Origin: Fidelibacterota bacterium
GTDB lineage: Bacteria > Fidelibacterota > Marinisomatia > Marinisomatales > Marinisomataceae
DNA length: 59,318 nucleotides
Reading direction: 5' to 3'
Assembly (NCBI GenBank): GCA_018672235.1
Contig: JABHGE010000034.1
Location: forward strand, 1 to 59,318
Within the stretch, counting starts at the first letter, position 1; each line of letters begins with the position of its first letter. Position numbers and translations under genes: made by a program. This document shows positions 2,548 through 59,318 of this stretch, one piece after another. The notes under the pieces were generated by a model, which was not told the DNA's origin, did no database searches, and was given only the letters and a program-made list of their open reading frames with translations.

Positions 2548-3764
2548 AATTTTTTAAAAGCTAATACTGAATTATGCCCACCAAATCCGAAAGAATTACT
2601 CATCGTAACAGTAAGATTAGATTCCATGCTCTTATTTGGAACATAATTTAAATCACATTCAGGATCAGGAGTTTCATAATTGATAGTAGGGGGCACGATT
2701 CCATGATTCATGGCATATATACAGGTAATTGCTTCGATTGCCCCTGTAGCACCCAACATATGGCCTGTCATAGACTTTGTAGAACTAATTAATAGATCAT
2801 TTGCAGTATGTCCAAACGCTTGCTTGATAGCTTGAGTTTCTAGCATGTCATTATAATACGTAGAAGTCCCGTGTGCATTGATATAGCTTACTTCATCTTT
2901 ATTGATAGCACCATCTTTCAATGCTAGTTCAATAGCACTTGTAGCACCCGTACTTTTATTATGAGGCTGAGTGATATGATAGGCGTCATTTGTAATTCCA
3001 TATCCTATAATTTCTGCTAAAATATTAGCATCTCTTTTTTGTGCACTATCTAATGATTCTAAAACTAGCATAGCTGATCCTTCAGATATAATAAATCCAT
3101 CTCTATTTTTATCAAAAGGCTTAGATGCACCTTCAGGATCTCCATTATTTTTTGATAAAGCTTTCATATTTGAAAATCCAGATAAGGTTAAAGGAGTTAT
3201 TCCTCCTTCAGACCCTCCACATACCATTGCATGTATTTGATTAGATTGAATTAGTCTGTAAGCCATACCTATAGCATCACTAGCAGAAGAGCATGCAGTA
3301 GAAAGAGACAAATTTAGTCCATGGAATCCATGCTTGATAGCAATTTGACCACCTGCAATATTTGGAATCATTTTTGGTATAAAATGAGGAGATACACCTC
3401 TTTGACCTTTTTTTAATAGTTTGGTGTGTTCTTGTTCTAATGTGTTCATCCCACCTACGCCAGTACCTAGGATTACACCTACATTTGAAGAATCAAGCCC
3501 AGAACTTTTAATAGCTTGATCTGCGGCTATCATAGCAAACATAGTATAGCGATCAAGCTTTCTAGATTCTTTATGCTCAAAAAAAGATAGAGGATCAAAA
3601 TCAGTGATTTCTCCAGCAATTTTAACATTGAATTCTTCGGTATCAAAATTTTCAATCAGCTTGATACCAGATTTACCATTGATAAGATTATTCCAAAGAT
3701 TTTTGGATGATAATCCCAGAGGAGAGATACTACCTTCTCCAGTAATAACAACTCTATTTGACAA
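2544..3764 (-). CDS. fabF: 3-oxoacyl-ACP synthase II
   Basis: Full-length KAS II pattern: active-site region TACSSASDA, HGTSTYYND, GHMLGATG, and C-terminal FGFGGHN. Confidence 0.95.
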   Translation of the reverse strand: MSNRVVITGEGSISPLGLSSKNLWNNLINGKSGIKLIENFDTEEFNVKIAGEITDFDPLSFFEHKESRKLDRYTMFAMIAADQAIKSSGLDSSNVGVILGTGVGGMNTLEQEHTKLLKKGQRGVSPHFIPKMIPNIAGGQIAIKHGFHGLNLSLSTACSSASDAIGMAYRLIQSNQIHAMVCGGSEGGITPLTLSGFSNMKALSKNNGDPEGASKPFDKNRDGFIISEGSAMLVLESLDSAQKRDANILAEIIGYGITNDAYHITQPHNKSTGATSAIELALKDGAINKDEVSYINAHGTSTYYNDMLETQAIKQAFGHTANDLLISSTKSMTGHMLGATGAIEAITCIYAMNHGIVPPTINYETPDPECDLNYVPNKSMESNLTVTMSNSFGFGGHNSVLAFKKF

Positions 3765-16920: not shown

Positions 16921-17379
16921 ATGCGTAGCCAATATACATTTACAGGACAATATGATTTTGTTATTGATTCAAAAAATCGAATCAATATTCCATCAATATT
17001 TCGCAAACAGCTCGATGAGTCGGATAAAAATAGATTTGTTATAACAAGAGGAATTGATTCTTGTATATGGATATATCCTTTAGGTGAATGGGAAAAAATT
17101 GAAAAAGAATTAAGTCAATTATCCTCTCTGTCTAAGGTAAACCGCACTTTTTTAAGAAATCATTTAAGGCATGCTAAAATAGTATGCTCAGATGATCAGG
17201 GTAGACTGATACTAACAAAAAATTTAATTGAGTATGCAAATATTTTAAAGAATATTACCATTATAGGCGTTTTAAATAAAATTGAGATATGGGATAATGC
17301 TACATTAGCAGTATCAGATTCCGAACAAAGTATTGATGAAGAATTCTATGAAGACCTTTCTAGGAGGGTCAATATCTGA
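16921..17379 (+). CDS. mraZ: transcriptional regulator MraZ
   Basis: Duplicated SpoVT/AbrB-like halves (DSKNRINIPSIFR and DDQGRLILTKNL). First gene of the dcw cluster. Confidence 0.9.
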   Translation: MRSQYTFTGQYDFVIDSKNRINIPSIFRKQLDESDKNRFVITRGIDSCIWIYPLGEWEKIEKELSQLSSLSKVNRTFLRNHLRHAKIVCSDDQGRLILTKNLIEYANILKNITIIGVLNKIEIWDNATLAVSDSEQSIDEEFYEDLSRRVNI

Positions 17380-18269
17380 TGACCTCAATTCTGTCGGAGA
17401 ACTATAGCCATTACCCAGTTATGCTGATAGAATCAATTGATAATTTAAATATTAAAAAAAATGGATTTTATGTTGATGGTACCGTAGGTCTTGGAGGTCA
17501 TTCAATTGAAATTCTTCAAGAAATAAAAAAAGGATTTCTTATAGGTTTTGATAGAGATTCAAATTCAATCAAGATTGCAAATAAGAGATTAGCCTCATTC
17601 GATAATTTTGAATTAATACACTCTAGTTATACTAATTTAGAAAAAACTTGCGATAGGCTTAATATTGATGGAGTAGATGGAATTCTTTTAGATCTAGGTC
17701 TTTCTTCTTTTCAGTTAGAAGATAATCAAAGAGGATTTTCTCATCGATATAATTCATCTTTAGATATGAGATTTGATGATAAGGATGATAGCTTGACAGC
17801 TCAAGAAATTATCGAAAATTCATCGGTAAGAGATCTCACTAATATCTTTAATGAATTTGGAGAAGAAAGGAATTCATTTAGAATTGCCAGAGCAATCAAA
17901 GAGTCGAATGAAGAAATAAACGCTGATACACTTGTGAATATTATCAGTAGAAAAACAGCTTATAAATATCGCATCAAAACATATTCACGAATTTTTCAAG
18001 CACTTAGAATAAAAACAAACAATGAGTTAGATCATTTAGAGTCATTTTTAAATGATTTTATGCATTTTCTTAATCCTGGAGGTAGGATTGTAATTATCAG
18101 CTATCATTCAATGGAAGATCGAATGGTCAAACATAAATTCAAAGATTTGAAATTAAATAAAGAACTACAAGTTCTATCAAAGAAACCTTTTACACCTACG
18201 GATGAAGAAATATTCGACAATAAGAGATCTCGAAGTGCAAAAATGAGAGTAGGAGAAAAAATTGGCTAG
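17379..18269 (+). CDS. rsmH: 16S rRNA (cytosine1402-N4)-methyltransferase
   Basis: HYPVML, DGTVGLGGHS, LLDLGLSS and SYHSMEDR motifs. Confidence 0.95.
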   Translation: MTSILSENYSHYPVMLIESIDNLNIKKNGFYVDGTVGLGGHSIEILQEIKKGFLIGFDRDSNSIKIANKRLASFDNFELIHSSYTNLEKTCDRLNIDGVDGILLDLGLSSFQLEDNQRGFSHRYNSSLDMRFDDKDDSLTAQEIIENSSVRDLTNIFNEFGEERNSFRIARAIKESNEEINADTLVNIISRKTAYKYRIKTYSRIFQALRIKTNNELDHLESFLNDFMHFLNPGGRIVIISYHSMEDRMVKHKFKDLKLNKELQVLSKKPFTPTDEEIFDNKRSRSAKMRVGEKIG

Positions 18270-18570
18270 AAAGAAAAGACTAACAAAAGCACAAATCCAA
18301 AAAAGAGAAAATATAAAATGGACTCTAATGTTTGTGTTAACGGTAGGAACAATTTCTTTATATTTAGCCGCTTTTATAGAGATAGATAAAACTCAAGCTA
18401 GTATTGATTTTAATCGACAAACATTAGCTCAGTTAGACGAAGATCTTATATTAAAAATTAATTCTGTTGAGAAGATGAAAAGAGCAGATGTTATTTCGAA
18501 AAAAGCAAAGAAAATTGGATTAATAGCAAGTAAGCCAGAGACACTCATCGTGAAAATAAGCAATGACTAA
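18262..18570 (+). CDS. ftsL: cell division protein FtsL-like
   Basis: 102 aa, basic N-terminus, one TM, then a coiled-coil. The call rests on position between rsmH and ftsI. Sequence similarity is not assessable by eye. Confidence 0.6.
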   Translation: MARKKRLTKAQIQKRENIKWTLMFVLTVGTISLYLAAFIEIDKTQASIDFNRQTLAQLDEDLILKINSVEKMKRADVISKKAKKIGLIASKPETLIVKISND

Positions 18571-20491
18571 AAATTATCTAAAATTTAAAAATAGAATACG
18601 ATTTGTAAGTACTATTCTTATGTTCGTTTGGGCTGTTTTTGTGTACAGATTATTTACAATTCAAATCATAGATAGAGTTGATAATCCACAGGGGATGAAA
18701 GTGGAGATGATTAAGGGTAAAAGAGGTAATATTTTTGATGTGAAAGGAAATAATATTACTCAGAATTTAACTTTTTATAATATCGGAGTACATCCAAGAA
18801 AAATAAGTAATAAAGATATTTTCTTAAGAGATCTATCTGATTGTACGGGTACTGATGTAGGTATTTATTTTTCTAAATTCAATGACGAAAAATCCTATAT
18901 ACAGTTAGAAAAAAAGACAATAGAGAATTGTCAAAAATTGAATTCAAAATATGGTGATGCACTTGTCATAAATCAAGATTATAAAAGATATTATCCTGAA
19001 GAAAACTTATTTGGTCAAATTGTTGGATTTACCAATGTAGATGATGTAGGAATTTCTGGTCTAGAATTTCAATATAATAAGCACTTAGAGCCTGAAGAAG
19101 GATCAAGAGTTTTTAAAAGAAATGGATTTGGTAAACGTATTGCTGATCCTACGTTAGCATATGAAGCGCCTGAAGATGGATCAGATATTTATTTAACTAT
19201 TAATAAAGAATATCAAGCAATTTTAAGAGAAGAATTGATTGATCAAGTAGAAAAAACTGAAGCATCCTCCGCTATGGGAATAATATTAAATCCTCAGACA
19301 GGAGAAATAGTATCTATGGTTAGTGTTCCTGATTTTAACCCTAATAATCCAGAAGACTTTGAATTGGAATATCAAAAAAATAGACTAATTCTAGATACGG
19401 TAGAGCCTGGATCAACTTTTAAGATTGTTACTATTGCAGCAGCTCTTAAGAGTGATATAGATCCAATGGATGAGTACAATGTCGAAGGCCCATATAATTT
19501 TCACGACATAAAAATGATTGAAGATTCTGAACCGCATTCTGTACTTACTGTTAAGGAAATTTTAGCTTATTCAAGCAATATAGGCACAATAAAGATTGCT
19601 GAGTCTTTGGGTCAAAATAAAATTTATAATCAAGCCAAAGAATTTGGTTTTGGATCTAAGACTGGTTTAAATCCGATGAGCGAAGCAAGTGGTATAGTTT
19701 ATGAAACTAAAAAATGGAGCAAATCTTCAATGCATAGTATTCCTTTGGGATATGAAGTTTCTGCTACTCCAATACAGATTGCTATGGCATATGCTGCAAT
19801 CGCAAATGGAGGTTTTTTATTGAAACCATACATGATTAACGAAGTTAAAAAAAGTGATAATACAATTTTAAAAAATGAAAAGAGATCTAAAAAAAGAATC
19901 CTTTCTCAGTCAGATGCAGAAATATTAAAAGACATGTTATTGCATACAGTTGAAAATGGAAGTGGAAAAAAAGCTCGACTATCTGGTTGGGATGTATCTG
20001 GAAAAACAGGGACATCTAAAAAAATTGTGGATGGTCAATATTCAGAATCAGAATTCTTATCTAGTTTTGTAGGATTTTTTCCAAAAGAAAATCCTCAATT
20101 ATTAGCATTAATCATGATTGATGGAGCATCAGTTTCTAGAAATTATCATTGGGGTTCTATGTCAGCAGCGCCTGTATTTAAGTCGGTAATGAAAAGAATT
20201 ATCAATATTGATTCAGAAATAACCAATAATAAATCTAAAAAGGCCACCAAGTCTAAAAAATCTGACCCAATTTTGATTCAAAAAAATGTTAAAAAATCTA
20301 AAGATATTCAAATGGTAGAAATGCCAAATTTATATGGTAAAAGCGTTATGGAAGCATACTCAATTTTAAATAAAACAGGTATCAAGGCTCAATTAACGGG
20401 TAATGGAGTAATAATTTTTCAATCTATATCAGTCGGAAAAGAAATACCTAAAAACTCTATATGTATACTAAAAGCAGATATAGAATCATGA
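18563..20491 (+). CDS. ftsI: peptidoglycan D,D-transpeptidase (class B PBP) with C-terminal PASTA domain
   Basis: N-terminal TM; transpeptidase motifs STFK, SSN and KTGT. The last ~59 aa (MVEMPNLYGKSV...) look like a PASTA domain. Confidence 0.9.
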   Translation: MTKNYLKFKNRIRFVSTILMFVWAVFVYRLFTIQIIDRVDNPQGMKVEMIKGKRGNIFDVKGNNITQNLTFYNIGVHPRKISNKDIFLRDLSDCTGTDVGIYFSKFNDEKSYIQLEKKTIENCQKLNSKYGDALVINQDYKRYYPEENLFGQIVGFTNVDDVGISGLEFQYNKHLEPEEGSRVFKRNGFGKRIADPTLAYEAPEDGSDIYLTINKEYQAILREELIDQVEKTEASSAMGIILNPQTGEIVSMVSVPDFNPNNPEDFELEYQKNRLILDTVEPGSTFKIVTIAAALKSDIDPMDEYNVEGPYNFHDIKMIEDSEPHSVLTVKEILAYSSNIGTIKIAESLGQNKIYNQAKEFGFGSKTGLNPMSEASGIVYETKKWSKSSMHSIPLGYEVSATPIQIAMAYAAIANGGFLLKPYMINEVKKSDNTILKNEKRSKKRILSQSDAEILKDMLLHTVENGSGKKARLSGWDVSGKTGTSKKIVDGQYSESEFLSSFVGFFPKENPQLLALIMIDGASVSRNYHWGSMSAAPVFKSVMKRIINIDSEITNNKSKKATKSKKSDPILIQKNVKKSKDIQMVEMPNLYGKSVMEAYSILNKTGIKAQLTGNGVIIFQSISVGKEIPKNSICILKADIES

Positions 20492-21831
20492 ATTTGAGTA
20501 ATAAAAATATCGGTATTTTAGGATTGGGTGTTAGCGGTTATTCCGCTGCAAAGCTAGCTAGTTCTCTTGGTGCTAATGTTTTTGTATCAGATAGTAAGTC
20601 AGATGTGAATGATTCATATATAAAAGAATTGACAGATATGGGAGTTGATATTGAATTAGGTCTTCACTCTAGAAAAATTCTTAACTCTGAATTGATTATA
20701 AAGTCTCCTGGAATTCCAAGTGATATAGAAATAATTCAAAGCATATTAGATAATAAAACAGAGATTATAAGCGAAATTGAGTTTGCCTATAGGTTGTCAG
20801 ATCTAAAAATTATTGCTATAACAGGTACAAATGGAAAAACTACCACAGTGACATGTCTATATGAGGTTTTAAAGAAAAAATTCAACGTTGTAAAAAGTGG
20901 AAATATTGGTACTCCATTCTCAGAAATTGTCTATAAAGAAAATAAATATAAAACATCAAATACTGATTTCTGCATATTAGAGTTATCAAGTTTTCAGATT
21001 GATGATATTGATACATTTAAACCTGAAATAGCAATGATTTTAAATATTTCGAGAGATCATTTGGATAGATATACAGATTTTATTGATTACTCTAAATCAA
21101 AGATGAATCTTTTTAAAAATATGAAGGATAATGATTTAATAATTTATAATCATGACGATCCTGTGCTATGTGAAGAAGTAGAGAAAAGAGATAGGGTATT
21201 TACAGCTTACTCCTTAGATAAGAATTTTAGCATATTTTACTTAGAAGATAGAATCATAGAATCTGTTCATAGCGAAAAAAATCTACATATAGATGATTGT
21301 AAATTATCAGGAATTCATAATATATCTAATTTTATAGGTATTGCTACTATTGCTTCACATCTAGGATTAGATGATAGAGATATCTTTGAATCATTAAAAA
21401 TATTTAAAGGTTTAGAACATAGATTTGAAACATTTAAAGAAGTTGATGGTGTGAAGTTTATCAACGATTCTAAAGCAACAAATATTGCTTCAGTCAAAGT
21501 TGCTATTGATTCTATAGATAAAAATATTATATTAATAATGGGAGGACTTCCCAAGGAATCAGATTTTTCAGCAATTATAGAGTGCTCTCAATCTATAAAA
21601 TCTATAATTGCTTACGGAAAAGCATCTAATGATATCTATAATTCATTATCTGAATCATGTAAAGTAGTAAAGATTGAAAAATTTGAAGAAGCAATTAATT
21701 CTGCAATTAACTTAGCAGTAAAAGGAGATTCTGTATTGATGTCTCCTGGATGTTCTAGTTATGATCAATTTAAAAATTTTGAAGAAAGAGGCAATTTTTT
21801 TAAAAGTATAGTAGAAAGGCATTATTCATGA
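20488..21831 (+). CDS. murD: UDP-N-acetylmuramoylalanine--D-glutamate ligase
   Basis: GLGVSGYS N-terminal Rossmann motif, ITGTNGKTTT P-loop and GLEHRFE. Start moved to the ATG at 20488, which gives an ATGA overlap with the ftsI stop. Confidence 0.9.
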   Translation: MNLSNKNIGILGLGVSGYSAAKLASSLGANVFVSDSKSDVNDSYIKELTDMGVDIELGLHSRKILNSELIIKSPGIPSDIEIIQSILDNKTEIISEIEFAYRLSDLKIIAITGTNGKTTTVTCLYEVLKKKFNVVKSGNIGTPFSEIVYKENKYKTSNTDFCILELSSFQIDDIDTFKPEIAMILNISRDHLDRYTDFIDYSKSKMNLFKNMKDNDLIIYNHDDPVLCEEVEKRDRVFTAYSLDKNFSIFYLEDRIIESVHSEKNLHIDDCKLSGIHNISNFIGIATIASHLGLDDRDIFESLKIFKGLEHRFETFKEVDGVKFINDSKATNIASVKVAIDSIDKNIILIMGGLPKESDFSAIIECSQSIKSIIAYGKASNDIYNSLSESCKVVKIEKFEEAINSAINLAVKGDSVLMSPGCSSYDQFKNFEERGNFFKSIVERHYS

Positions 21832-22961
21832 ATATTAAAGAAAGAAAACAAGATAGATGGTTGTTAGGCACGGTGATAGTGTTAGTTATTTTTGGTTTAT
21901 CAATTTTATTTAGTGCTAGTTGGATAAAATCCCTCGAAGTAACTGATGGAGTTTCACGTATGTATTTTTTGAAGAATCAATTATTTAAATTCATTCCAGG
22001 TTTATTTGTATTTTTTGTTGCATCTCATTTGAACTATAGAAAACTACAATATTTATCCCCTGTTTTAATGATAGGATCATTTTTGCTGTTAATATATACT
22101 CAAGTCCAAGGATGTAATGGAGACTCTTGTAGATGGCTATCTATTGGCCCAATTTCTTTTCAGACATCTGATTTAGCAAGATTTTCAGTAATTTTATTTT
22201 TAGCTGACTACATAGATAGAAATTATAAATATATGAATCAATTTGTTAAGGGAATCTTAATACCGTTATGTTGGATTTTACCTATTTGCTTAATGATTAT
22301 TATTCAGCCTGATAACTCTACCACCTTAATTTTGCTGTCTATTGTATTTATCCTGCTCTTTATTGGTGGCGTATCATTGCCACAAATAGGTACTGTAGGT
22401 GTATTATCTGTAGGAGCAATTGGAATTTTTATACTAAATAGTAAAAATTATGCATTAGGTAGAATACTATCATTTCTTGATCCTAGTTCTTCAGCTAGCG
22501 TAGGATATCAATCTAGTCAAGCATTGATTGGGTTGAGACAGGGAGGTATTTCAGGAATGGGTATTGGCGAAAGCATACAAAAACATTCTTATTTACCAGA
22601 GACTCATACTGACTTTATTTTTGCTATTATTGGGGAAGAGTTAGGTTTTATAGCAGGTTTTATAGTAATGATGGCTTATGGAATAATTTTATTTAGAGCT
22701 ATTCAAATTTCTAAAAAATCAAATGATATTTTTGGTATTATTCTCTCTATTGGTTTCGGATTAAGTATCACATTTTATGCATTAATAAATATTGGAGTAG
22801 TCATCGGGATTATACCGGTTACAGGTGTTCCACTCCCGTTTGTTAGCTATGGAGGCTCTTCATTGATTATCAATCTATTAATGGTAGCAATTCTATTAAA
22901 CATCAGTAAAGCACAAAGAAAATTTAAAGTTAAAAAATGGAGACTCCGAGTCGATGGATAA
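21828..22961 (+). CDS. ftsW: SEDS-family peptidoglycan glycosyltransferase FtsW
   Basis: Polytopic membrane protein with PETHTDFIF and PFVSYGGSS motifs. dcw position. Confidence 0.9.
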   Translation: MNIKERKQDRWLLGTVIVLVIFGLSILFSASWIKSLEVTDGVSRMYFLKNQLFKFIPGLFVFFVASHLNYRKLQYLSPVLMIGSFLLLIYTQVQGCNGDSCRWLSIGPISFQTSDLARFSVILFLADYIDRNYKYMNQFVKGILIPLCWILPICLMIIIQPDNSTTLILLSIVFILLFIGGVSLPQIGTVGVLSVGAIGIFILNSKNYALGRILSFLDPSSSASVGYQSSQALIGLRQGGISGMGIGESIQKHSYLPETHTDFIFAIIGEELGFIAGFIVMMAYGIILFRAIQISKKSNDIFGIILSIGFGLSITFYALINIGVVIGIIPVTGVPLPFVSYGGSSLIINLLMVAILLNISKAQRKFKVKKWRLRVDG

Positions 22962-24039
22962 ATATAGAATTATCTTTTGCGGAGGAGGAACTGGAGGGCA
23001 TTATTATCCATTAATGGCTATCAAGAATAAACTTGAAAAAAAAGTAGAGAATAAAAATTTATACTATATTGGATCAAAATATGGAATTGAGTCTAAGAAA
23101 ATTTATTCAGAAAATATCCAGAGTCTTCTCATCCCAATCAAAGGTTTTAATAGATCTTTTTCATTGTATGCAATATCAAGAAATTTCTTATTATTATTTC
23201 AATTATTTTTTGGTTTAATTAGAGTGAGTTTTTTCTTTGTAAAAAATAAACCAAATTTAGTAATTGCAACAGGTGGATATGCCTCATTTATACCTCTTCA
23301 GATAGCTAAAATATTCAGAGTGCCCTATTTTTTGCATGAACAAAATTCATTTCCAGGATTGGTCACTAGAATATTTGGATCCAGTGCAAAAAAAGTATTC
23401 CTTGGTTTTGAGAATGCAAAAAACTATTTAAAAACTAGCGACACTTTATTTACAGGGAATCCCATTTATAGTCATAATCGTAAAGATATGTCTCTATCCT
23501 TAGATAGTGATAAAAAAACTTTATTGGTGCTCGGCGGAAGTCAAGGTTCAGTATTTTTAAATAAAATTATTTCAGAATCTATTGATAATAAAATGTTAGA
23601 TAGAATTAACATTCTTTGGATTGTAGGTATTAATAATTATGAAAAATATAAGCATTATAATACTAAATCAATTAAAGTCCTTTCTTTCGTTGATAATATG
23701 CCATATTTATACAGTTTATGCGATTTAATAGTTTCAAGATCTGGTGCTATGACAGTATCTGAAATATTAGAGTTTAAAAAACCTTCAATCCTTATACCTT
23801 TCAAGTTCTCAGCAGAGAATCATCAAGTTTTTAATGCTAAATATTTAGAAGAAAATTTTGCAGCACTATTAATTCAAGAAAAAGATATATCTATGTCGTT
23901 ATTATCAAATAAGATCAATCAAATTTGTGAAAATGATAGAATATATAAGTCAATGAAAGAAAGTATTGAGAAAATAGATAATCCAGATTCAATCAATATC
24001 ATAGATACTACAATCATGGAGCATATGCATGTTATCTAG
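22954..24039 (+). CDS. murG: UDP-GlcNAc:lipid I GlcNAc transferase
   Basis: GGGTGGH N-terminal motif, GGSQGS, and RSGAMTVSE. Confidence 0.9.
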   Translation: MDKYRIIFCGGGTGGHYYPLMAIKNKLEKKVENKNLYYIGSKYGIESKKIYSENIQSLLIPIKGFNRSFSLYAISRNFLLLFQLFFGLIRVSFFFVKNKPNLVIATGGYASFIPLQIAKIFRVPYFLHEQNSFPGLVTRIFGSSAKKVFLGFENAKNYLKTSDTLFTGNPIYSHNRKDMSLSLDSDKKTLLVLGGSQGSVFLNKIISESIDNKMLDRINILWIVGINNYEKYKHYNTKSIKVLSFVDNMPYLYSLCDLIVSRSGAMTVSEILEFKKPSILIPFKFSAENHQVFNAKYLEENFAALLIQEKDISMSLLSNKINQICENDRIYKSMKESIEKIDNPDSINIIDTTIMEHMHVI

Positions 24040-51249: not shown

Positions 51250-51787
51250 GTATATTATTATTCTATTCATATCATCTTTTTTGATAGCTCAAGAAGAAAT
51301 TGAAAAAAAAGATCTTTCTATTCCACCTCTACTACAAGAAGAAATGACTGATCTTGAACTAATGTTAGTTGCTGATATAAATACCAATGAAACTTTAAGT
51401 GAATTTTTAAAACTAAATATAATTTCTAATTCTTTAAAATTGAATGCACCTCAATATGATCGTTTTGTTAAAAAAAATAATGTTGGAATGCTACTCCCAG
51501 TTAATACTTCGTCGTCACTTTATCTAGATGCAGGTATTCAAGGTTGGATTGAAGCGAATAAATATGTTCAAGAAAATAATGATAGTTATTCTGTCGGATT
51601 TTTTGGAAGTACTGGAGAAAAATTTAGTTATTATAATTCAAGAAAAGGATATGTAGATACAGATAATTATTTTAAAGATTCTTGGGATAAGCGATCCACC
51701 GATGATTACATTCGCTACATGCACATATCTCCTTATATGCCTGACTCTGAAAAAAATACAATATATGATCCCAATCGAACTCAATAA
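51242..51787 (+). CDS. hypothetical secreted protein
   Basis: 181 aa with a signal peptide (IIILFISSFLIAQEE). No recognisable domain. Overlaps the arfB stop by 8 nt and the murE start by 23 nt. Confidence 0.5.
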   Translation: MNKYIIILFISSFLIAQEEIEKKDLSIPPLLQEEMTDLELMLVADINTNETLSEFLKLNIISNSLKLNAPQYDRFVKKNNVGMLLPVNTSSSLYLDAGIQGWIEANKYVQENNDSYSVGFFGSTGEKFSYYNSRKGYVDTDNYFKDSWDKRSTDDYIRYMHISPYMPDSEKNTIYDPNRTQ

Positions 51788-53216
51788 AGTCCTAGACGGT
51801 ATCGTAGAACTCGATAATTCGCTGCTTGGGAAACAAGTATTGGGAATTAGTATGAACTCGAAAGATATTAGTCCAGGATTCGTATTCGTTGCTATTAATG
51901 GAACTAAGTTTAATGGAAATGATTTTATAGATGAGGCACTGCTCAAAGGCGCAATATGTGTTATTAGTGATTCAAAAAATAGAGAACAGTCTAGTAAAGT
52001 TATTCAGGTGAAAAATGCTAGAGAAGCACTTGGAAAAATTGCAGCTAACTTTTATGATCACCCTGAACATAAAATTAAACTTATTGGCGTGACAGGAACT
52101 AACGGCAAGACTTCTACAACATTAATATTAAAAAGTATTCTTGAGTCTTACGGTAAAAAAGTGCTTCAAGTTGGAACTTTAGGGATTATTCCAAATATAG
52201 TTAACAATGATTTTGGGTTAACTACTCCCAATTCTATAGATATTTTTAAGATACTCAATGCTGCAGTACAGAAAGAGTACGATTTTGCTATATTGGAAGT
52301 TTCATCGCATGCTTTGTCACAGAATAGAGTTGATAATCTTAGATTTGATTTTGCAGGCTTTACTAATCTTACTTTAGATCATTTAGACTATCATGGCACT
52401 ATACAAAAGTATTTTAATGATAAGAAAAAATTATTTGGATTGATAAAAGACAATGGATCGAGTTTGATACTTAGTGATAGCACATATGGCAAAGATATTT
52501 GTAATGAATATGACAACACCAATACTATATCCCTTGCAAATAAAGATGCAGACTTTTATTGTGTAGATTTTAATTTAAATCATAATGGCACTACCGCTAT
52601 TTTTAATTTTAAAGGTACATCTATAGAGGTTACTTCAAAACTAGTAGGAAAGTATAATCTCGAGAATGTTATTTTAGCCGCTACAGTTGCTTTTGAAGCA
52701 GGAGTTGATATAGAATCCATTAAAGAAGGAATTGCTTCATGTAAATTTATTCCTGGGAGGTATGAATTTATATCAAATAAGGGTCCAGCTATTATTATCA
52801 GTGACTATGGGCATACTCCAGATGCATATACTAATGTTTTACAATCTATCAAAGATGTATATCATGATAAAAATATTAAAGTTTTATTTGGAGCTGGCGG
52901 TAATAGAGATAAGTCAAAAAGAGCAGAAATGGCAAATGCGATAGAAAATTTTGCAGTTCAATGTTATTTGGCTCCTGACAATCCAAGATTTGAAAATATT
53001 GATGATATTAATCATGAAGTTGTAAAAGGTTTTTCAAAAAATATTTATCAACTATTCAATGATAGAGAAAAAGGATTAATAGCAGCACTAGCAGATTTAA
53101 CTTCAAATGATATCTTAATTATTTTTGGAAAAGGTAATGAAGAATACCAAGAGATTAGTGGCAAAAAATTACATTATTCAGATAGAAAAATTATAGAAGA
53201 ATTTTATGAGAATTGA
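51765..53216 (+). CDS. murE: UDP-MurNAc-L-Ala-D-Glu:meso-DAP (or L-Lys) ligase
   Basis: VTGTNGKTST P-loop, and a DNPR motif (APDNPRFE) typical of DAP-adding MurE. Start set to the ATG at 51765 (MIPIELNKVL...). Confidence 0.9.
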   Translation: MIPIELNKVLDGIVELDNSLLGKQVLGISMNSKDISPGFVFVAINGTKFNGNDFIDEALLKGAICVISDSKNREQSSKVIQVKNAREALGKIAANFYDHPEHKIKLIGVTGTNGKTSTTLILKSILESYGKKVLQVGTLGIIPNIVNNDFGLTTPNSIDIFKILNAAVQKEYDFAILEVSSHALSQNRVDNLRFDFAGFTNLTLDHLDYHGTIQKYFNDKKKLFGLIKDNGSSLILSDSTYGKDICNEYDNTNTISLANKDADFYCVDFNLNHNGTTAIFNFKGTSIEVTSKLVGKYNLENVILAATVAFEAGVDIESIKEGIASCKFIPGRYEFISNKGPAIIISDYGHTPDAYTNVLQSIKDVYHDKNIKVLFGAGGNRDKSKRAEMANAIENFAVQCYLAPDNPRFENIDDINHEVVKGFSKNIYQLFNDREKGLIAALADLTSNDILIIFGKGNEEYQEISGKKLHYSDRKIIEEFYEN

Positions 53217-54492
53217 TATACAGCAATCTGAATTGTTTACCGCATACTTCTCAAATGAAATTGATTGTAAAATTGATTATTTAATATCAGGTATTAGTAC
53301 AGATAGTAGAGATATTAGAGATGGTGATTTATTCTTAGCTCTTAAAGGAGAGCATTTTGATGGATCTAATTTTATCAATCAAGCTATTAAAAATGGAGCG
53401 GTTTGTTGTCTTGCAGAGTCTGGCACTAAATCGGACAATATATTTATTGTTAATGATGTCACATCACTAATTGGAAAAATTTGTGCTAGATGGATGAATG
53501 ATTTTGAAGGTTATACTATTGCGGTAACAGGAACGAATGGTAAAACCACATCAAAAGATATGATATATCATATCTTAAGTAAATCAGGCCATCGCGTATG
53601 TAAAACTCAAGGTAATTTTAATACATCTATTGGAGTTCCTTTGAGCATATTTTCTTTTTCAGATAATGTAGATTATTATGTACTAGAACTTGGAGCAAAT
53701 CAAGTTGGAGATATCAAAAATTTGTCATCAATAATTAAGCCAAACTGCGCTATTGTCACCAATATATCTGATGCTCATTTAGAAGGATTTGGTTCTCTAG
53801 ATAATATTATTAAAGAAAAAACATCTATCTTTGATCATTCAGATATAGGATTTTATAGATCACAGATTAATATTGATTATTCAAACCCTAAAATCAAATT
53901 ATTATCAGATAGTTTAGAAAATTTTCATTATCCAGAAAAGCTCAATCTAATGTTTGATAAAAACAGAACTTTACTTGAAAATGCTTTCACGGTATATCAC
54001 ACTTGTAATGCTATCATAGATATATCTATTGATGATTTCTTTGCATTAATTGAGGACTTTTCTTTGCCAAAAGGTAGAGGACAAGTATATCTTCTAGATA
54101 ATAACATAAAAATGATTGATGATACATATAATGCAAATCCTGAATCTGTTAAAGCAGCAATTGACAATCTTGTAAAGTATGACAATAAAGGAAGAAAAAT
54201 ATTTGTTTTTGGAGATATGAAAGAGCTTGGTATTGATGAGGCAAGGTTTCACAAAGAGATTGGTGAGTATTGTTCAGAAAAAATTGATATTATAATGTGT
54301 TATGGTGATTTAGCAAAAAATACTATTAATCATAGTAACAAAATTCCAATACAACTACATTTTGATACGAAAGAAAGCTTATCCAAGAAGCTTTGCAGCG
54401 AGATTCAAAAAAATGATGTAATTTTATTAAAAGGTTCTCGCAGCATGAAATTAGATTTGATAATAAAAGATATTATAAATTATGTTAAATGA
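53206..54492 (+). CDS. murF: UDP-MurNAc-tripeptide--D-Ala-D-Ala ligase
   Basis: STDSR, VTGTNGKTTSKDM and DDTYNANPESV motifs. Confidence 0.9.
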   Translation: MRIDIQQSELFTAYFSNEIDCKIDYLISGISTDSRDIRDGDLFLALKGEHFDGSNFINQAIKNGAVCCLAESGTKSDNIFIVNDVTSLIGKICARWMNDFEGYTIAVTGTNGKTTSKDMIYHILSKSGHRVCKTQGNFNTSIGVPLSIFSFSDNVDYYVLELGANQVGDIKNLSSIIKPNCAIVTNISDAHLEGFGSLDNIIKEKTSIFDHSDIGFYRSQINIDYSNPKIKLLSDSLENFHYPEKLNLMFDKNRTLLENAFTVYHTCNAIIDISIDDFFALIEDFSLPKGRGQVYLLDNNIKMIDDTYNANPESVKAAIDNLVKYDNKGRKIFVFGDMKELGIDEARFHKEIGEYCSEKIDIIMCYGDLAKNTINHSNKIPIQLHFDTKESLSKKLCSEIQKNDVILLKGSRSMKLDLIIKDIINYVK

Positions 54493-55591
54493 AATATTAG
54501 AGCCATTTAAAGATTACTTTAGTTTTTTAAATCTATTTGAGTATATCACATTTAGAGCAGGTGCAAGTGCAATACTTTCTCTATTAATCAGTTTTATTTT
54601 TGGCCCAGTTGTTGTTAGAAAGTTAACAGAATTACAAATTGGAGAATCCATTGGAGACCATGGTCCAAAAAGTCATAACAAGAAACAGGGTACACCGACT
54701 ATGGGTGGAGTGCTCATTATTCTTGCAACAATTATACCTACTTTATTGTTTGCAGATATGAGTAATCTATTTATAAGGATTATTTGTTTTTCAATGGTGT
54801 GGATGGGTTGTATTGGTTTCTATGATGATTATTTAAAATCTATTAAGAAAAGAAAGGGTGGACTAAAAGGAAGATATAAATTAATTGCACAGTCAATGTT
54901 AGGTATAGTAATCTCTTTTCTTATTATCCAATCAAATATATATGGAGAATATACTCTATCCACTTTTGTACCATTCTTAAAAAACGCATCAATCAATTTT
55001 TATTATCCTTTAATTTATACATCCTTTGTAATTCTTGTTGTTTCAGCAACATCAAATGCTGTCAATCTTACTGATGGTCTTGATGGGCTAGCTGCAGGAT
55101 TGCTTGCAATTTCTATTATTGTATTTGGAGTTATTTCATATATATCTGGTAGAGTTGATTTCTCTGATTATCTAAATATTGCCTACATCCCACTTGCAAG
55201 TGAGTTAACAATATTTGCTGCTGCATTTTTTGGTGGATGCTTAGGGTTTTTATGGTTTAATGCAAAGCCAGCATTAATTTTTATGGGAGATGTAGGATCT
55301 CTTTCAAGTGGAGCAGCGCTAGGAACATTAGCAATTCTATTGAAAAAAGAAGTACTCCTAATCATTGTTGGTGGAGTGTTCGTTATTGAGACATTATCAG
55401 TAATTTTACAAGTACTGTATCATCGATGGACAAAGAAGAAGTATGGCACTCCAAGAAAGTTATTTTTAATGGCACCAATCCACCATCATTTTGAACTTAA
55501 AGGATGGCCTGAATCAAGAGTGGTAGTACGATTTTGGCTTATTGGAATCTTATTTGCACTACTATCTCTTACAACATTTAAAATTAGATAG
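54482..55591 (+). CDS. mraY: phospho-N-acetylmuramoyl-pentapeptide transferase
   Basis: KQGTPTMGG, NAVNLTDGLDGLA, GDVGSL and APIHHHFE motifs. Confidence 0.95.
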   Translation: MLNEILEPFKDYFSFLNLFEYITFRAGASAILSLLISFIFGPVVVRKLTELQIGESIGDHGPKSHNKKQGTPTMGGVLIILATIIPTLLFADMSNLFIRIICFSMVWMGCIGFYDDYLKSIKKRKGGLKGRYKLIAQSMLGIVISFLIIQSNIYGEYTLSTFVPFLKNASINFYYPLIYTSFVILVVSATSNAVNLTDGLDGLAAGLLAISIIVFGVISYISGRVDFSDYLNIAYIPLASELTIFAAAFFGGCLGFLWFNAKPALIFMGDVGSLSSGAALGTLAILLKKEVLLIIVGGVFVIETLSVILQVLYHRWTKKKYGTPRKLFLMAPIHHHFELKGWPESRVVVRFWLIGILFALLSLTTFKIR

Positions 55592-57455: not shown

Positions 57456-58499
57456 ATGGAAGATATATACAAAATGATTTTAACTATGAATTTGATGCCA
57501 CTCATCGTTGTGGTAATAGGAACATTCTTAGGTATTTTATTTAAAAAATACTTATTTAGTAAGCTAAAGAATTTGTCAGACAGTAGTTCATGGAAAGGTG
57601 ATGATGTAGTGATTAATGCAATTGATTCTGTGATTGTTTTTTGGTTTTTTCTTGGCTCTCTTTCAGTCGCTTTTAATGATATAAATTTTGGAGATCCATA
57701 TAATGGATATATGTCAAAAATAATAGTTTCTTTCTTAGTAATGTCAATGACTGTTACTGCCTCTAGGGTGTCATTAGGACTGCTTGATGTATGGTCTAAA
57801 AATAACACTTCTCTTCCATCTACGGGTATTTTTAAGGGCTTAATTAATGCTACTATTTTTTCACTAGGATTTTTATTTGTTTTACAATCATTTGGAATAT
57901 CAATTACTCCACTCATCACTGCTTTAGGCGTTGGTGGTTTAGCTGTTTCTCTGGCTTTAAAAGACACTCTTTCAGACTTATTTGGTGGAATTAATATCAT
58001 TTTAAGTAAGACAATGCAAGAAGGAGATTATGTAGAGCTCAGTAATGGATATCAAGGATATGTTAAGAATATTGGATGGAGATATACTACCATACAAGAA
58101 AGAGCAAATAATGTGATATCAATCCCAAATTCTGTTCTTTCTGGATCTGTATCAAAGAATTATACTTCTATGGATGCAGCTTTCAGAGTGCCAATACAGG
58201 TAGGAGTTTCTTATGATAGCGACTTAGATCATGTAGAAAAAGTATCTCTAGAAGTAGCAGGAAAGATTTATGAAGAACTAGACTGTGTCAGCAAAGATTA
58301 TAAGCCAACAATTCGATTTAGAGAGTTTGCGGCCTCAAGTATTAACTTCTTTATTTATTTTCAAGGAAAGAAATTTGGAGATCATAATGTTATTTTGAAT
58401 GCATTTATTAAAAAACTTCATAAGCGCTTTCAAGAAGAGAGTATCGAAATTCCATACCCTATTCGTACAGTAATACACAAAAATGAAGCTAAGAATTAA
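57456..58499 (+). CDS. mechanosensitive ion channel (MscS family)
   Basis: Several N-terminal TM helices followed by the conserved MscS pore/beta-domain region (GVGGLAVSLALKDTLSDLFGG...GDYVEL...G.V..I..R.T). Confidence 0.85.
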   Translation: MEDIYKMILTMNLMPLIVVVIGTFLGILFKKYLFSKLKNLSDSSSWKGDDVVINAIDSVIVFWFFLGSLSVAFNDINFGDPYNGYMSKIIVSFLVMSMTVTASRVSLGLLDVWSKNNTSLPSTGIFKGLINATIFSLGFLFVLQSFGISITPLITALGVGGLAVSLALKDTLSDLFGGINIILSKTMQEGDYVELSNGYQGYVKNIGWRYTTIQERANNVISIPNSVLSGSVSKNYTSMDAAFRVPIQVGVSYDSDLDHVEKVSLEVAGKIYEELDCVSKDYKPTIRFREFAASSINFFIYFQGKKFGDHNVILNAFIKKLHKRFQEESIEIPYPIRTVIHKNEAKN

Positions 58500-58920
58500 A
58501 CCCTTTAACGATAAAGCAAAAGCTTTATATGAAGATCATTCACATTTCCATTCAGGGGATGCTGGATTAGATTTATTTGTAGTAGATGATCAAGTGATTC
58601 CTGGTAACTCTACGCAACCTATTCATTTACAGGTTGCCTGCGAAAATTTGGATAATAAGGCATATTATTTATTTCCTAGATCCAGTATATCAAAGACTCC
58701 TATTCGATTAGCTAATTCTATTGGATTAATCGATGGAGGCTATAGGGGAGAGCTTGTAGGAATGGTTGATAATATATATAGCGAAGATTATCATGTGAAA
58801 AGCGGAGAAAGATATTTTCAGTTAGTAGCTGTTGATAGTTCACCAATTGAATTTGAACTAGTAGAAGAGTTATCAGATTCCAGTAGAGGTGAAGGTGGTT
58901 TTGGTAGTACTGGAAAATAA
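58483..58920 (+). CDS. dut: dUTP diphosphatase
   Basis: dUTPase motifs AGLDL, PRSS, GLIDGGYRGE and C-terminal RGEGGFGSTG. Confidence 0.9.
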   Translation: MKLRIKPFNDKAKALYEDHSHFHSGDAGLDLFVVDDQVIPGNSTQPIHLQVACENLDNKAYYLFPRSSISKTPIRLANSIGLIDGGYRGELVGMVDNIYSEDYHVKSGERYFQLVAVDSSPIEFELVEELSDSSRGEGGFGSTGK

Positions 58921-59031
58921 TTCCAGAGGATATCATTTTGATAAATAAAATTAGTTTGATATTCCTGAGGATTTATACTAAGATTCAACCGCAAAATTTT
59001 TAATAAAAATAAGTTAAATAACGGAGGAAAA

Positions 59032-59318
59032 ATGGCTCTAAAAATTAAACCACTTGAAGATAGAGTTATTGTAGAAGCAATGGCTGCTGATGAAAAAACA
59101 GCTAGCGGAATTATTCTACCAGATACAGCACAAGAAAAACCTCAACAAGGAACTGTTCTTGTTGTTGGTAAAGGTAAATCTTGTGATTGCAGTTGTTGTA
59201 AAGACTGTGATTGCTGTAAGGGCGACAAATGTTGTTCAGATTCTATGTCTGTGAAAGCAGGAGATAAAGTTTTATACGGAAAATATTCAGGCACTGAAAT
59301 CAATCATGAAGGGAAAGA
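59032..59318 (+). CDS. groES: co-chaperonin GroES with Cys-rich insertion (3' end outside window)
   Basis: Not in the ORF track because no stop lies in the window. GGAGG sits 5 nt upstream of the ATG. Hand translation: MALKIKPLEDRVIVEAMAADEKTASGIILPDTAQEKPQQGTVLVVGKGKSCDCSCCKDCDCCKGDKCCSDSMSVKAGDKVLYGKYSGTEINHEGK... The flanks are canonical Cpn10 (I.PL.DRV.V, mobile loop, G.V.AVG.G, VK.GD.VL..KY.GTE). Confidence 0.85.
   Translation, partial: MALKIKPLEDRVIVEAMAADEKTASGIILPDTAQEKPQQGTVLVVGKGKSCDCSCCKDCDCCKGDKCCSDSMSVKAGDKVLYGKYSGTEINHEGK

Follow-up and report, generated by a model that had tools for sequence, protein, structure and literature searches.

Introduction

What has happened to the roof of the GroES protein encoded at the end of contig JABHGE010000034.1, and what might the cysteines that now fill it be doing? 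The contig comes from a Fidelibacterota bacterium and was analysed over its whole length of 59,318 nucleotides (nt), a stretch referred to below as the window, and its last gene is groES, which encodes the co-chaperonin Cpn10. Few proteins are as conserved or as well studied as GroES, whose roof is usually seen as a passive cap; in the abundant ocean lineage described here the roof evolves fast and holds up to nine cysteines per subunit. The original prediction, which was made from the nucleotide sequence without database searches, was that the roof hairpin had been replaced by a metallothionein-like segment with nine cysteines. Here, we report that the gene is most probably the housekeeping groES in a population of uncultured, low-GC marine Marinimicrobia (SAR406/Marinisomatota) and lies in a normal groES–groEL operon, that its cysteine-rich roof is a real feature with near certainty, and that the nine-cysteine form stands at the upper end of a graded and quickly evolving series of zero to nine cysteines within one Marinimicrobia clade. 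As judged from the sequence, we favour with modest confidence the reading that the segment forms a thiolate metal-binding crown on a co-chaperonin that would still be functional.

A cysteine-rich segment replaces the roof hairpin

Translation of positions 59032–59318 of the forward strand gives 95 residues from an ATG start without a stop codon, MALKIKPLEDRVIVEAMAADEKTASGIILPDTAQEKPQQGTVLVVGKGKSCDCSCCKDCDCCKGDKCCSDSMSVKAGDKVLYGKYSGTEINHEGK, and these are the same residues as had been given for the partial open reading frame (ORF) in the original prediction. In pairwise alignments with PDB chains, as well as in a MAFFT alignment with Escherichia coli GroES, all of the extra residues lie between the G-x-G-K and V-K-x-G-D blocks, which confirms the earlier placement of the insert inside the roof hairpin (E. 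coli residues 44–58). At 28 residues, the roof exceeds the 15-residue roof of E. coli by 13, and it is also 13 residues longer than the ancestral Marinimicrobia roof. The claim that the roof is replaced therefore stands; the 25-residue string that had been read, K49–S73, corresponds to nt 59176–59250, the nucleotide range first assigned to it (59179–59244) being slightly off.

The cysteines occupy positions 51, 53, 55, 56, 59, 61, 62, 67 and 68 and form CxCxCC, CxCC and CC motifs. They account for nine of the 24 residues of S50–S73 (~37%), a segment without His, Phe, Tyr or Trp. Across the ORFs of the window cysteine makes up 1.0% of the residues and other 18-residue stretches hold at most three; the binomial probability of at least nine cysteines among 18 residues is ~4 × 10^-14. 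The segment contains a direct repeat of 20 nt with a spacing of 24 nt and 80% identity, and TGTGATTGC, which had been noticed twice at the DNA level, is part of this repeat. The nine cysteines in 18 positions, the CxC/CC motifs and the internal duplication were thus all borne out, and Tandem Repeats Finder called no array on the insert. The features of the locus are collected in Table 1.

Table 1. Features of the groES locus in the window.
Feature	Position (nt)	Strand	Remarks
Roof segment, G46–S73	59167..59250	+	GKGKSCDCSCCKDCDCCKGDKCCSDSMS; replaces the 15-residue roof hairpin (E. coli G44–D58)
Cysteine cluster, C51–C68	59182..59235	+	9 Cys in 18 residues; no His, no aromatic residue
Duplicated 24-nt unit (8 codons), K-x-C-D-C-x-C-C	59174–59193 and 59198–59217	+	Repeat search
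groES (co-chaperonin Cpn10)	59032..59318	+	Codons 1–95 of 109; contig end cuts the gene
Mobile loop, residues 19–36 (E. coli 17–34)	59086..59139	+	GroEL-binding, I-I-L tripeptide; alignment to E. coli GroES
Ribosome-binding site, GGAGG	59023..59027	+	4 nt 5' of the ATG; read from the sequence; kept in the upstream alignment
Candidate sigma-70-like promoter, TTGATA-17-TAAGAT	58956..58984	+	5' of groES; consensus scan, 9/12 matches
dut (dUTPase)	58483..58920	+	Its identical counterpart on L001 matches Pfam dUTPase; upstream neighbour of groES at all related loci

The gene is complete and intact

The window stops inside the gene, which is what speaks for an assembly or sequencing artefact or a pseudogene. 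Against this, two long metagenome contigs from independent samples, L001 (245 kb, JGI) and L002 (226 kb, ENA), match the final 3,319 nt of the window with 100% identity; in both, the ORF runs on to a stop codon as a complete 109-residue GroES, and groEL, encoding a 545-residue Cpn60 with the usual GGM tail, begins 13 nt after this stop. The extension to full groES and groEL that had originally been called for was obtained in this way, and the downstream interruption that had been named as the sign of a pseudogene is not found in either contig. The exact nine-cysteine protein is present on 176 contigs and a G64S variant on 109 more, drawn from five sources (NCBI, JGI, ENA, Logan and Tara). Since the complete ORF is on L001 and L002 and the protein is on ~300 contigs, the gene is neither an artefact nor a pseudogene, and we give that explanation practically no weight.

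The neighbourhood mraY–ispG–mscS–dut–groES–groEL–(folB)–folK is the same in every locus examined, with all roof types, so that the roof types described below are orthologues of one gene and not paralogues. In all relatives the gene sits at the one groESL locus. The 59-kb window contains a single Cpn10, and no second groES locus from the same assemblies was found among the best 80 genome matches. From the identical independent contigs, the contig counts and the shared synteny, the artefact, pseudogene and paralogue readings were ruled out. The window is the whole deposited contig, and the NCBI record accordingly holds a truncated 95-residue product; the deposited copies carry the name 'co-chaperone GroES' only, which is an annotation gap.

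The co-chaperonin core is retained

The identification as a bona fide GroES at both ends was upheld by a match to Pfam Cpn10 (PF00166) with E = 1 × 10^-23 (83.6 bits against a cut-off of 21.1) and by matches to solved GroES/Cpn10 chains in the PDB, with E values down to 6 × 10^-21. In the AlphaFold2 (AF2) monomer model the β-barrel core is confident, its strands having predicted local distance difference test (pLDDT) values of 70–80, and the mobile loop and roof are low; for the mobile loop, a low pLDDT is in line with a flexible loop. A Foldseek search against the PDB returned Cpn10, GroES or gp31 for all of the top 35 matches, with TM-scores of ~0.6–0.8.

The boundaries of the mobile loop and the roof hairpin were taken from E. 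coli GroES as defined in PMC5653362. The mobile loop ASGIILPDTAQEK aligns to AGGIVLTGSAAAK of E. coli and is unchanged between cysteine-rich and cysteine-free relatives, and the full-length protein has a canonical C-terminus (...LIMRESDILAII), with no tail beyond the GroES core. Because neither the β-barrel core nor the mobile loop nor the C-terminus departs from the canonical form, the protein should still cap GroEL.

Variation of the roof within the Marinimicrobia clade

The closest proteins are all GroES of Marinimicrobia (SAR406, Neomarinimicrobiota, Fidelibacterota). At the same syntenic groES, within one low-GC marine clade, the roof is hypervariable and holds 0, 2, 3–4, 5, 6, 7 or 9 cysteines (Table 2), and the outgroup Marinimicrobia have a cysteine-free roof of 11 residues of the form xSDxGxxVxMx.

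Table 2. Roof types at the syntenic groES of the low-GC Marinimicrobia clade.
Cysteines	Roof	Occurrence	Remarks
9	SCDCSCCKDCDCCK[GS]DKCCSDSMS	~300 contigs	
7	SCNCSCCKDCDCCKSDTM[SA]	~57 contigs	
6	SCNCDCCKGDKCCSNSMT	~90 contigs	One contig named GBIDBA, presumably from a Guaymas Basin plume assembly
6–7	KCDCKEG[SC]CKDC[SN]CCS..		
5	PSECSDCKCNDKCCSTLMT	91 contigs	
4	FSDCCKEEKCC	Rare	
3–4	KCN[CS]KDDCCSESS		
2	[IM]DCSKD[GS]CT..	124 contigs	
0	KDSSMT	524 contigs	91 residues, nearly roofless
0	NNEDGTTSKMT		Ancestral-looking

Such variability raises the alternative of a tolerated low-complexity drift, in which a permissive loop would have gathered cysteine repeats by slippage or duplication and kept them without function. 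Roof length and cysteine number do shift fast by unit-sized indels, and the codon layout shows such an indel between roof type 1 and each of types 2 and 3; cysteines are being lost in some lineages, and the roof is dispensable in a sister lineage and in gp31 (see below). However, cysteine makes up 1% of residues and is absent elsewhere in GroES, with none outside the roof in 166 of the 167 relatives scored, and a neutral repeat of the rarest and most reactive residue would be unexpected. Moreover, the cysteine codons show synonymous TGT/TGC swaps between lineages while the cysteine is retained, across species with GroEL identities of 89–95%, and roofs with a CC pair have come up independently in other phyla. 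In the nine aligned representatives of cysteine-rich clusters the terminal CC pair never changes, while nearby residues switch between D, N, S, G, K and E; within the nine-cysteine cluster the common polymorphism is at a non-cysteine site (G64S), and changes of cysteine occur only in single-contig members. The cysteines are conserved in related genomes, in which the GroES proteins of the clade keep them in the roof, and they are the selected feature of the roof; we regard drift as quite improbable.

A profile search with nine cysteine-rich variants gave no cysteine-rich cluster representatives beyond those of the first homologue search. Among the matches listed, none of the GTDB representative genomes has the 5–9-cysteine form, and the nearest GTDB relatives are roofless species with ~86% identity of the flanking DNA.

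Two kinds of unusual record were observed. P0137 (NCBI, 202-kb contig), which is of the nine-cysteine type, carries C53F and C61G on a single contig and is either a true variant or a consensus error. P0008, P0010, P0030, P0152, P0154, P0161 and P0162 combine the N-terminal half of one lineage with the roof and C-terminal half of another, switching inside the invariant PDTAQEKPQQGTVLVVG block; most of them are single short contigs, and they could be products of recombination between co-occurring populations or assembly chimeras.

Phylogeny and loss of the roof

In a neighbour-joining tree of GroEL with 200 bootstraps, the whole low-GC clade has 100% support and a group A, which comprises the 9-, 7- and 6-cysteine types together with the roofless form, has 99%. 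The nine-cysteine type and the roofless form are sisters with 86.5% support. Group A joins the 5-cysteine type with a support of only 4%, and the 2-cysteine type has the ancestral-looking roof as its sister; the tree is compatible with either a single origin or several origins of the cysteine roofs of the sub-lineages.

The roofless sister species are represented by L003, L004 and L005 (groES at 3001–3273, 3001–3273 and 1193–1465, respectively; proteins P0013–P0055). Their roof, KDSSMT, is five residues shorter than the ancestral roof, the flanking DNA is ~86% identical and GroEL is 95% identical. Since the roofless form nests inside the cysteine-rich group A, the most plausible reading is that it lost the cysteine cassette in a secondary deletion, which indicates that the cassette is dispensable for chaperonin function.

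This loss also bears on the possibility that the cysteines act as a structural staple, in which a Zn(Cys)4-type knuckle or inter-subunit bridges would rigidify the roof, plug the orifice and stabilize the heptamer without any part in metal homeostasis. The minimal forms of the roof hold exactly four cysteines with a hairpin-compatible spacing (P0006, P0011 and L136), and the seven roof hairpins surround a hole of ~5 Å (PMC5653362), both of which would suit a staple; it also overlaps in part with a metal-binding crown, as metal would still be bound. However, six, seven or nine cysteines are more than one structural site requires, and a stabilizing staple is seemingly not required, because the nested sister lineage has no roof and T4 gp31 functions without roof loops (PMC6318259). 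We therefore consider a purely structural role to be unlikely, although it is the alternative that we take most seriously.

Proposed function

The roof hairpin, which faces away from GroEL and seals the heptameric dome at its top, has been replaced here by a Cys/Asp/Lys/Ser segment built from CxC/CC units that were duplicated and deleted. In the proposed mechanism, the thiolates of the reducing cytoplasm's GroES would hold Zn(II), Cd(II) or Cu(I), all of them soft metal ions, in clusters of the metallothionein type, so that a metal–thiolate crown would sit on the outside or at the orifice of the lid; seven subunits would contribute 63 thiolates, assuming a heptamer. On one of the most abundant proteins of the cell, such a crown would buffer, store or detoxify metal for a cell with a streamlined genome, and the bound metal may also staple and cap the enlarged roof. 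A His-free, aromatic-free CxC/CC composition is the classic thionein make-up, and nine cysteines per subunit is the cysteine count of the metallothionein M3Cys9 domain. The metal–thiolate crown is favoured because of the His-free and aromatic-free CxC/CC array, the nine cysteines and the seven subunits. That the roof binds metal through thiolates is probable, a reading drawn from composition and conservation; that its physiological role is metal buffering or storage is suggested more tentatively.

Several observations weigh against this proposal. The insert alone matches no Pfam family at E ≤ 10, the metallothionein families included, and no chain in the PDB. The original description as 'metallothionein-like' therefore holds for composition and not for homology to these families or to a PDB chain, and it is a compositional statement only, as the insert has no profile similarity to the metallothionein families. 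The AF2 model has low confidence at residues 49–70 and, being a monomer, gives no geometry at the sevenfold axis. The number of cysteines is not strictly conserved and decays in some lineages (C to S, C to F). The roofless P0016, in which the whole segment is deleted, is the most abundant form (524 contigs), so that any function of the cassette would be accessory and perhaps niche-specific.

A redox device is one alternative to metal binding: the thiols would either soak up oxidants sacrificially or form a thiol/disulfide switch, with oxidation cross-linking the roofs and altering lid dynamics and cycling. Dense thiols at the point where seven subunits converge, in organisms of the oxic ocean that are present in Tara samples, would suit such a device, but switches usually comprise one or two conserved CxxC pairs and not 5–9 cysteines in CxC/CC arrays. 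The wide variation in cysteine number among close relatives and the lack of redox partner genes in the conserved neighbourhood likewise argue against it, and we hold it to be improbable. A further alternative, in which the cysteines ligate an [Fe–S] cluster or shuttle sulfane sulfur as persulfides and so tie the chaperonin to Fe–S or sulfur metabolism, appears very improbable. At least four cysteines per subunit could ligate a cluster, and Marinimicrobia are associated with sulfur cycling; however, Asp/Lys/Ser-rich CxC/CC arrays without CxxCxxC-type spacing are typical of thioneins, and there are no isc, suf or sulfur-transfer genes at the locus.

The metal–thiolate crown can be extended to a bolder version, which the sequence makes conceivable and which we offer as speculation with little expectation that it holds in full. 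The seven roofs would form one cooperative multi-metal cluster of 63 thiolates on the sevenfold axis as the main cytosolic Zn/Cu/Cd buffer or store, its metal or redox state would gate the orifice, and the cysteine number (0–9) would be an ecotype marker of the trace-metal regime. If this were true, the lid would bear a metal site of a new kind, through which trace-metal status is linked to protein folding. The related populations with 9, 7, 6, 5, 3–4, 2 and 0 cysteines at one locus, including the roofless form, make up a natural allelic series, which renders metallothionein-type buffering in free-living marine heterotrophs directly testable.

Comparison with known systems

The closest functional precedent is HspA, the sole GroES of Helicobacter pylori, the C-terminal His/Cys-rich extension of which sequesters Ni and serves the maturation of [NiFe]-hydrogenase (PMC4671568). 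As in HspA, a metal-binding peptide (here putative) is grafted onto an abundant housekeeping lid protein with the core untouched. The two differ in that the HspA segment is a His-dominated C-terminal tail, whereas the present one is an internal replacement of the roof made up of Cys, Asp, Lys, Ser and Gly, without His; the C-terminus here (...ESDILAII) is canonical and bears no HspA-type extension. Because the insert has no His and is cysteine-based, its preference is likely to be for soft thiophilic ions and not for Ni. A Cys–Cys motif in Hpn and HspA is reportedly an essential metal-anchoring site, according to the title of one paper. If the cysteines of the present roof bind metal, they would constitute a second, independent route to a lid that serves as a metal store, with roof thiolates in place of the His residues of a tail.

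The resemblance to metallothioneins lies in the ~37% cysteine content, the CxC/CC motifs, the absence of His and aromatic residues, and the Lys, Ser, Asp and Asn residues between the cysteines. The M3Cys9 β-domain of vertebrate metallothionein has nine cysteines, and fungal Cu-thioneins are further examples. In contrast to these, the present segment is a loop of a folded 109-residue chaperone subunit and not a free small protein, and metallothionein homology is not detectable. Another partial parallel is found in the alcohol dehydrogenases of the medium-chain dehydrogenase/reductase (MDR) superfamily, which combine a GroES-type β-barrel with a protruding structural-zinc loop of four cysteines. 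MDR enzymes were weak Foldseek matches to the AF2 model, but they are another protein family and not a heptameric lid.

T4 gp31 demonstrates that a co-chaperonin can work without a roof (PMC6318259), and the 91-residue sister lineage (L003–L005) resembles it in being nearly roofless. The nine-cysteine GroES takes a different course: gp31 gains a larger cage by dropping the roof and extending the mobile loop, whereas here the roof is enlarged and the mobile loop is unchanged.

A search of the full-text literature on GroES or co-chaperonins, Marinimicrobia/SAR406, metallothionein and metal found no description of a cysteine-rich GroES roof, in agreement with the earlier statement that no such variant was known, and a review of atypical type I chaperonins contains no such variant. 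The roof variant is widespread and apparently undescribed.

Cysteine-bearing roofs in other lineages

Metagenome DNA was scanned for a pattern in which an in-frame CC precedes K.GD.V.[YF].K[YFW].G by a few codons, which provides a sample and not a survey; of the 121 matches listed, 115 were out-of-frame matches to ordinary GroES. The match in L169 was discarded as a frameshifted ordinary GroES. The genuine ones include GroES proteins of Halanaerobiales type, with groEL downstream, in which the roofs are GKDCCKEDDAP and GSECCNDDGDP, a Patescibacteria GroES (L136) with the roof DATCSDCKGGSCCMIDSPA, containing CSDCKGGSCC, likewise with groEL downstream, and an orphan GroES with the roof GSCCWDDEPTPRC. 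L105, L134 and L136 lie upstream of groEL, and L166 has no groEL within 9 kb. The same pattern applied to IMG/VR revealed a phage-type GroES family (L221 and L224) with a conserved 'CCWD' roof, GPCCWDNQSTSNW.

CC-bearing roofs with 2–4 cysteines thus recur sporadically in the unrelated lineages of Halanaerobiales, Patescibacteria and phage-type GroES, and the 5–9-cysteine roofs were met in the Marinimicrobia clade only, among the matches listed. The motif CSDCK...CC of Patescibacteria closely mirrors the 5-cysteine type of Marinimicrobia (compare CSDCKCNDKCC of Marinimicrobia type 6). Further roof forms are CC-x4-CC (P0006), CxC-x3-CC (P0011) and CxxC-x5-CC (Patescibacteria L136). This independent recurrence of four-cysteine roofs is a convergence that speaks for the proposed metal-binding crown. 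Since phage-type GroES and the GroES of other phyla include smaller cysteine-bearing roofs, the idea of such a roof is not unique to the present protein.

A bait of three concatenated roofs gave four candidates, all of them the same Marinimicrobia GroES, and the exact cysteine words of the bait roofs were found nowhere else; cysteine-rich roofs of other sequence would escape this search. A representative-protein search with a 50-residue roof fragment, a query too short for 1.8 billion proteins, gave three matches, none of which was informative (two long repeat proteins and one ordinary cysteine-free GroES).

Regulation and the remainder of the window

The promoter-like block TTGATA-17-TAAGAT in the dut–groES spacer (58921–59031) is common to the group A loci, including the roofless sister. 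A CIRCE operator, the target of HrcA, was found neither upstream of groES nor anywhere else in the 59-kb window, and the regulation of groESL here is therefore unlike the CIRCE type that is seen, for example, in L169.

The remaining window (~31% GC) encodes ordinary bacterial housekeeping functions: fatty-acid synthesis, tricarboxylic acid cycle enzymes, the dcw cluster and one tRNA-Met. The dcw cluster is apparently split, with mraZ, rsmH, ftsI, murD, ftsW and murG at 16921–24039 and a second part at 51702–55591, ~28 kb further on, which contains two Mur ligases (by position probably murE and murF) and mraY; this second part is followed by ispG, mscS, dut and groES. Downstream, folB is present between groEL and folK in the group A loci and absent from the 5-cysteine type and the group B loci, in a comparison of L083–L085, L092 and L095–L097 with L001 and L086–L091.

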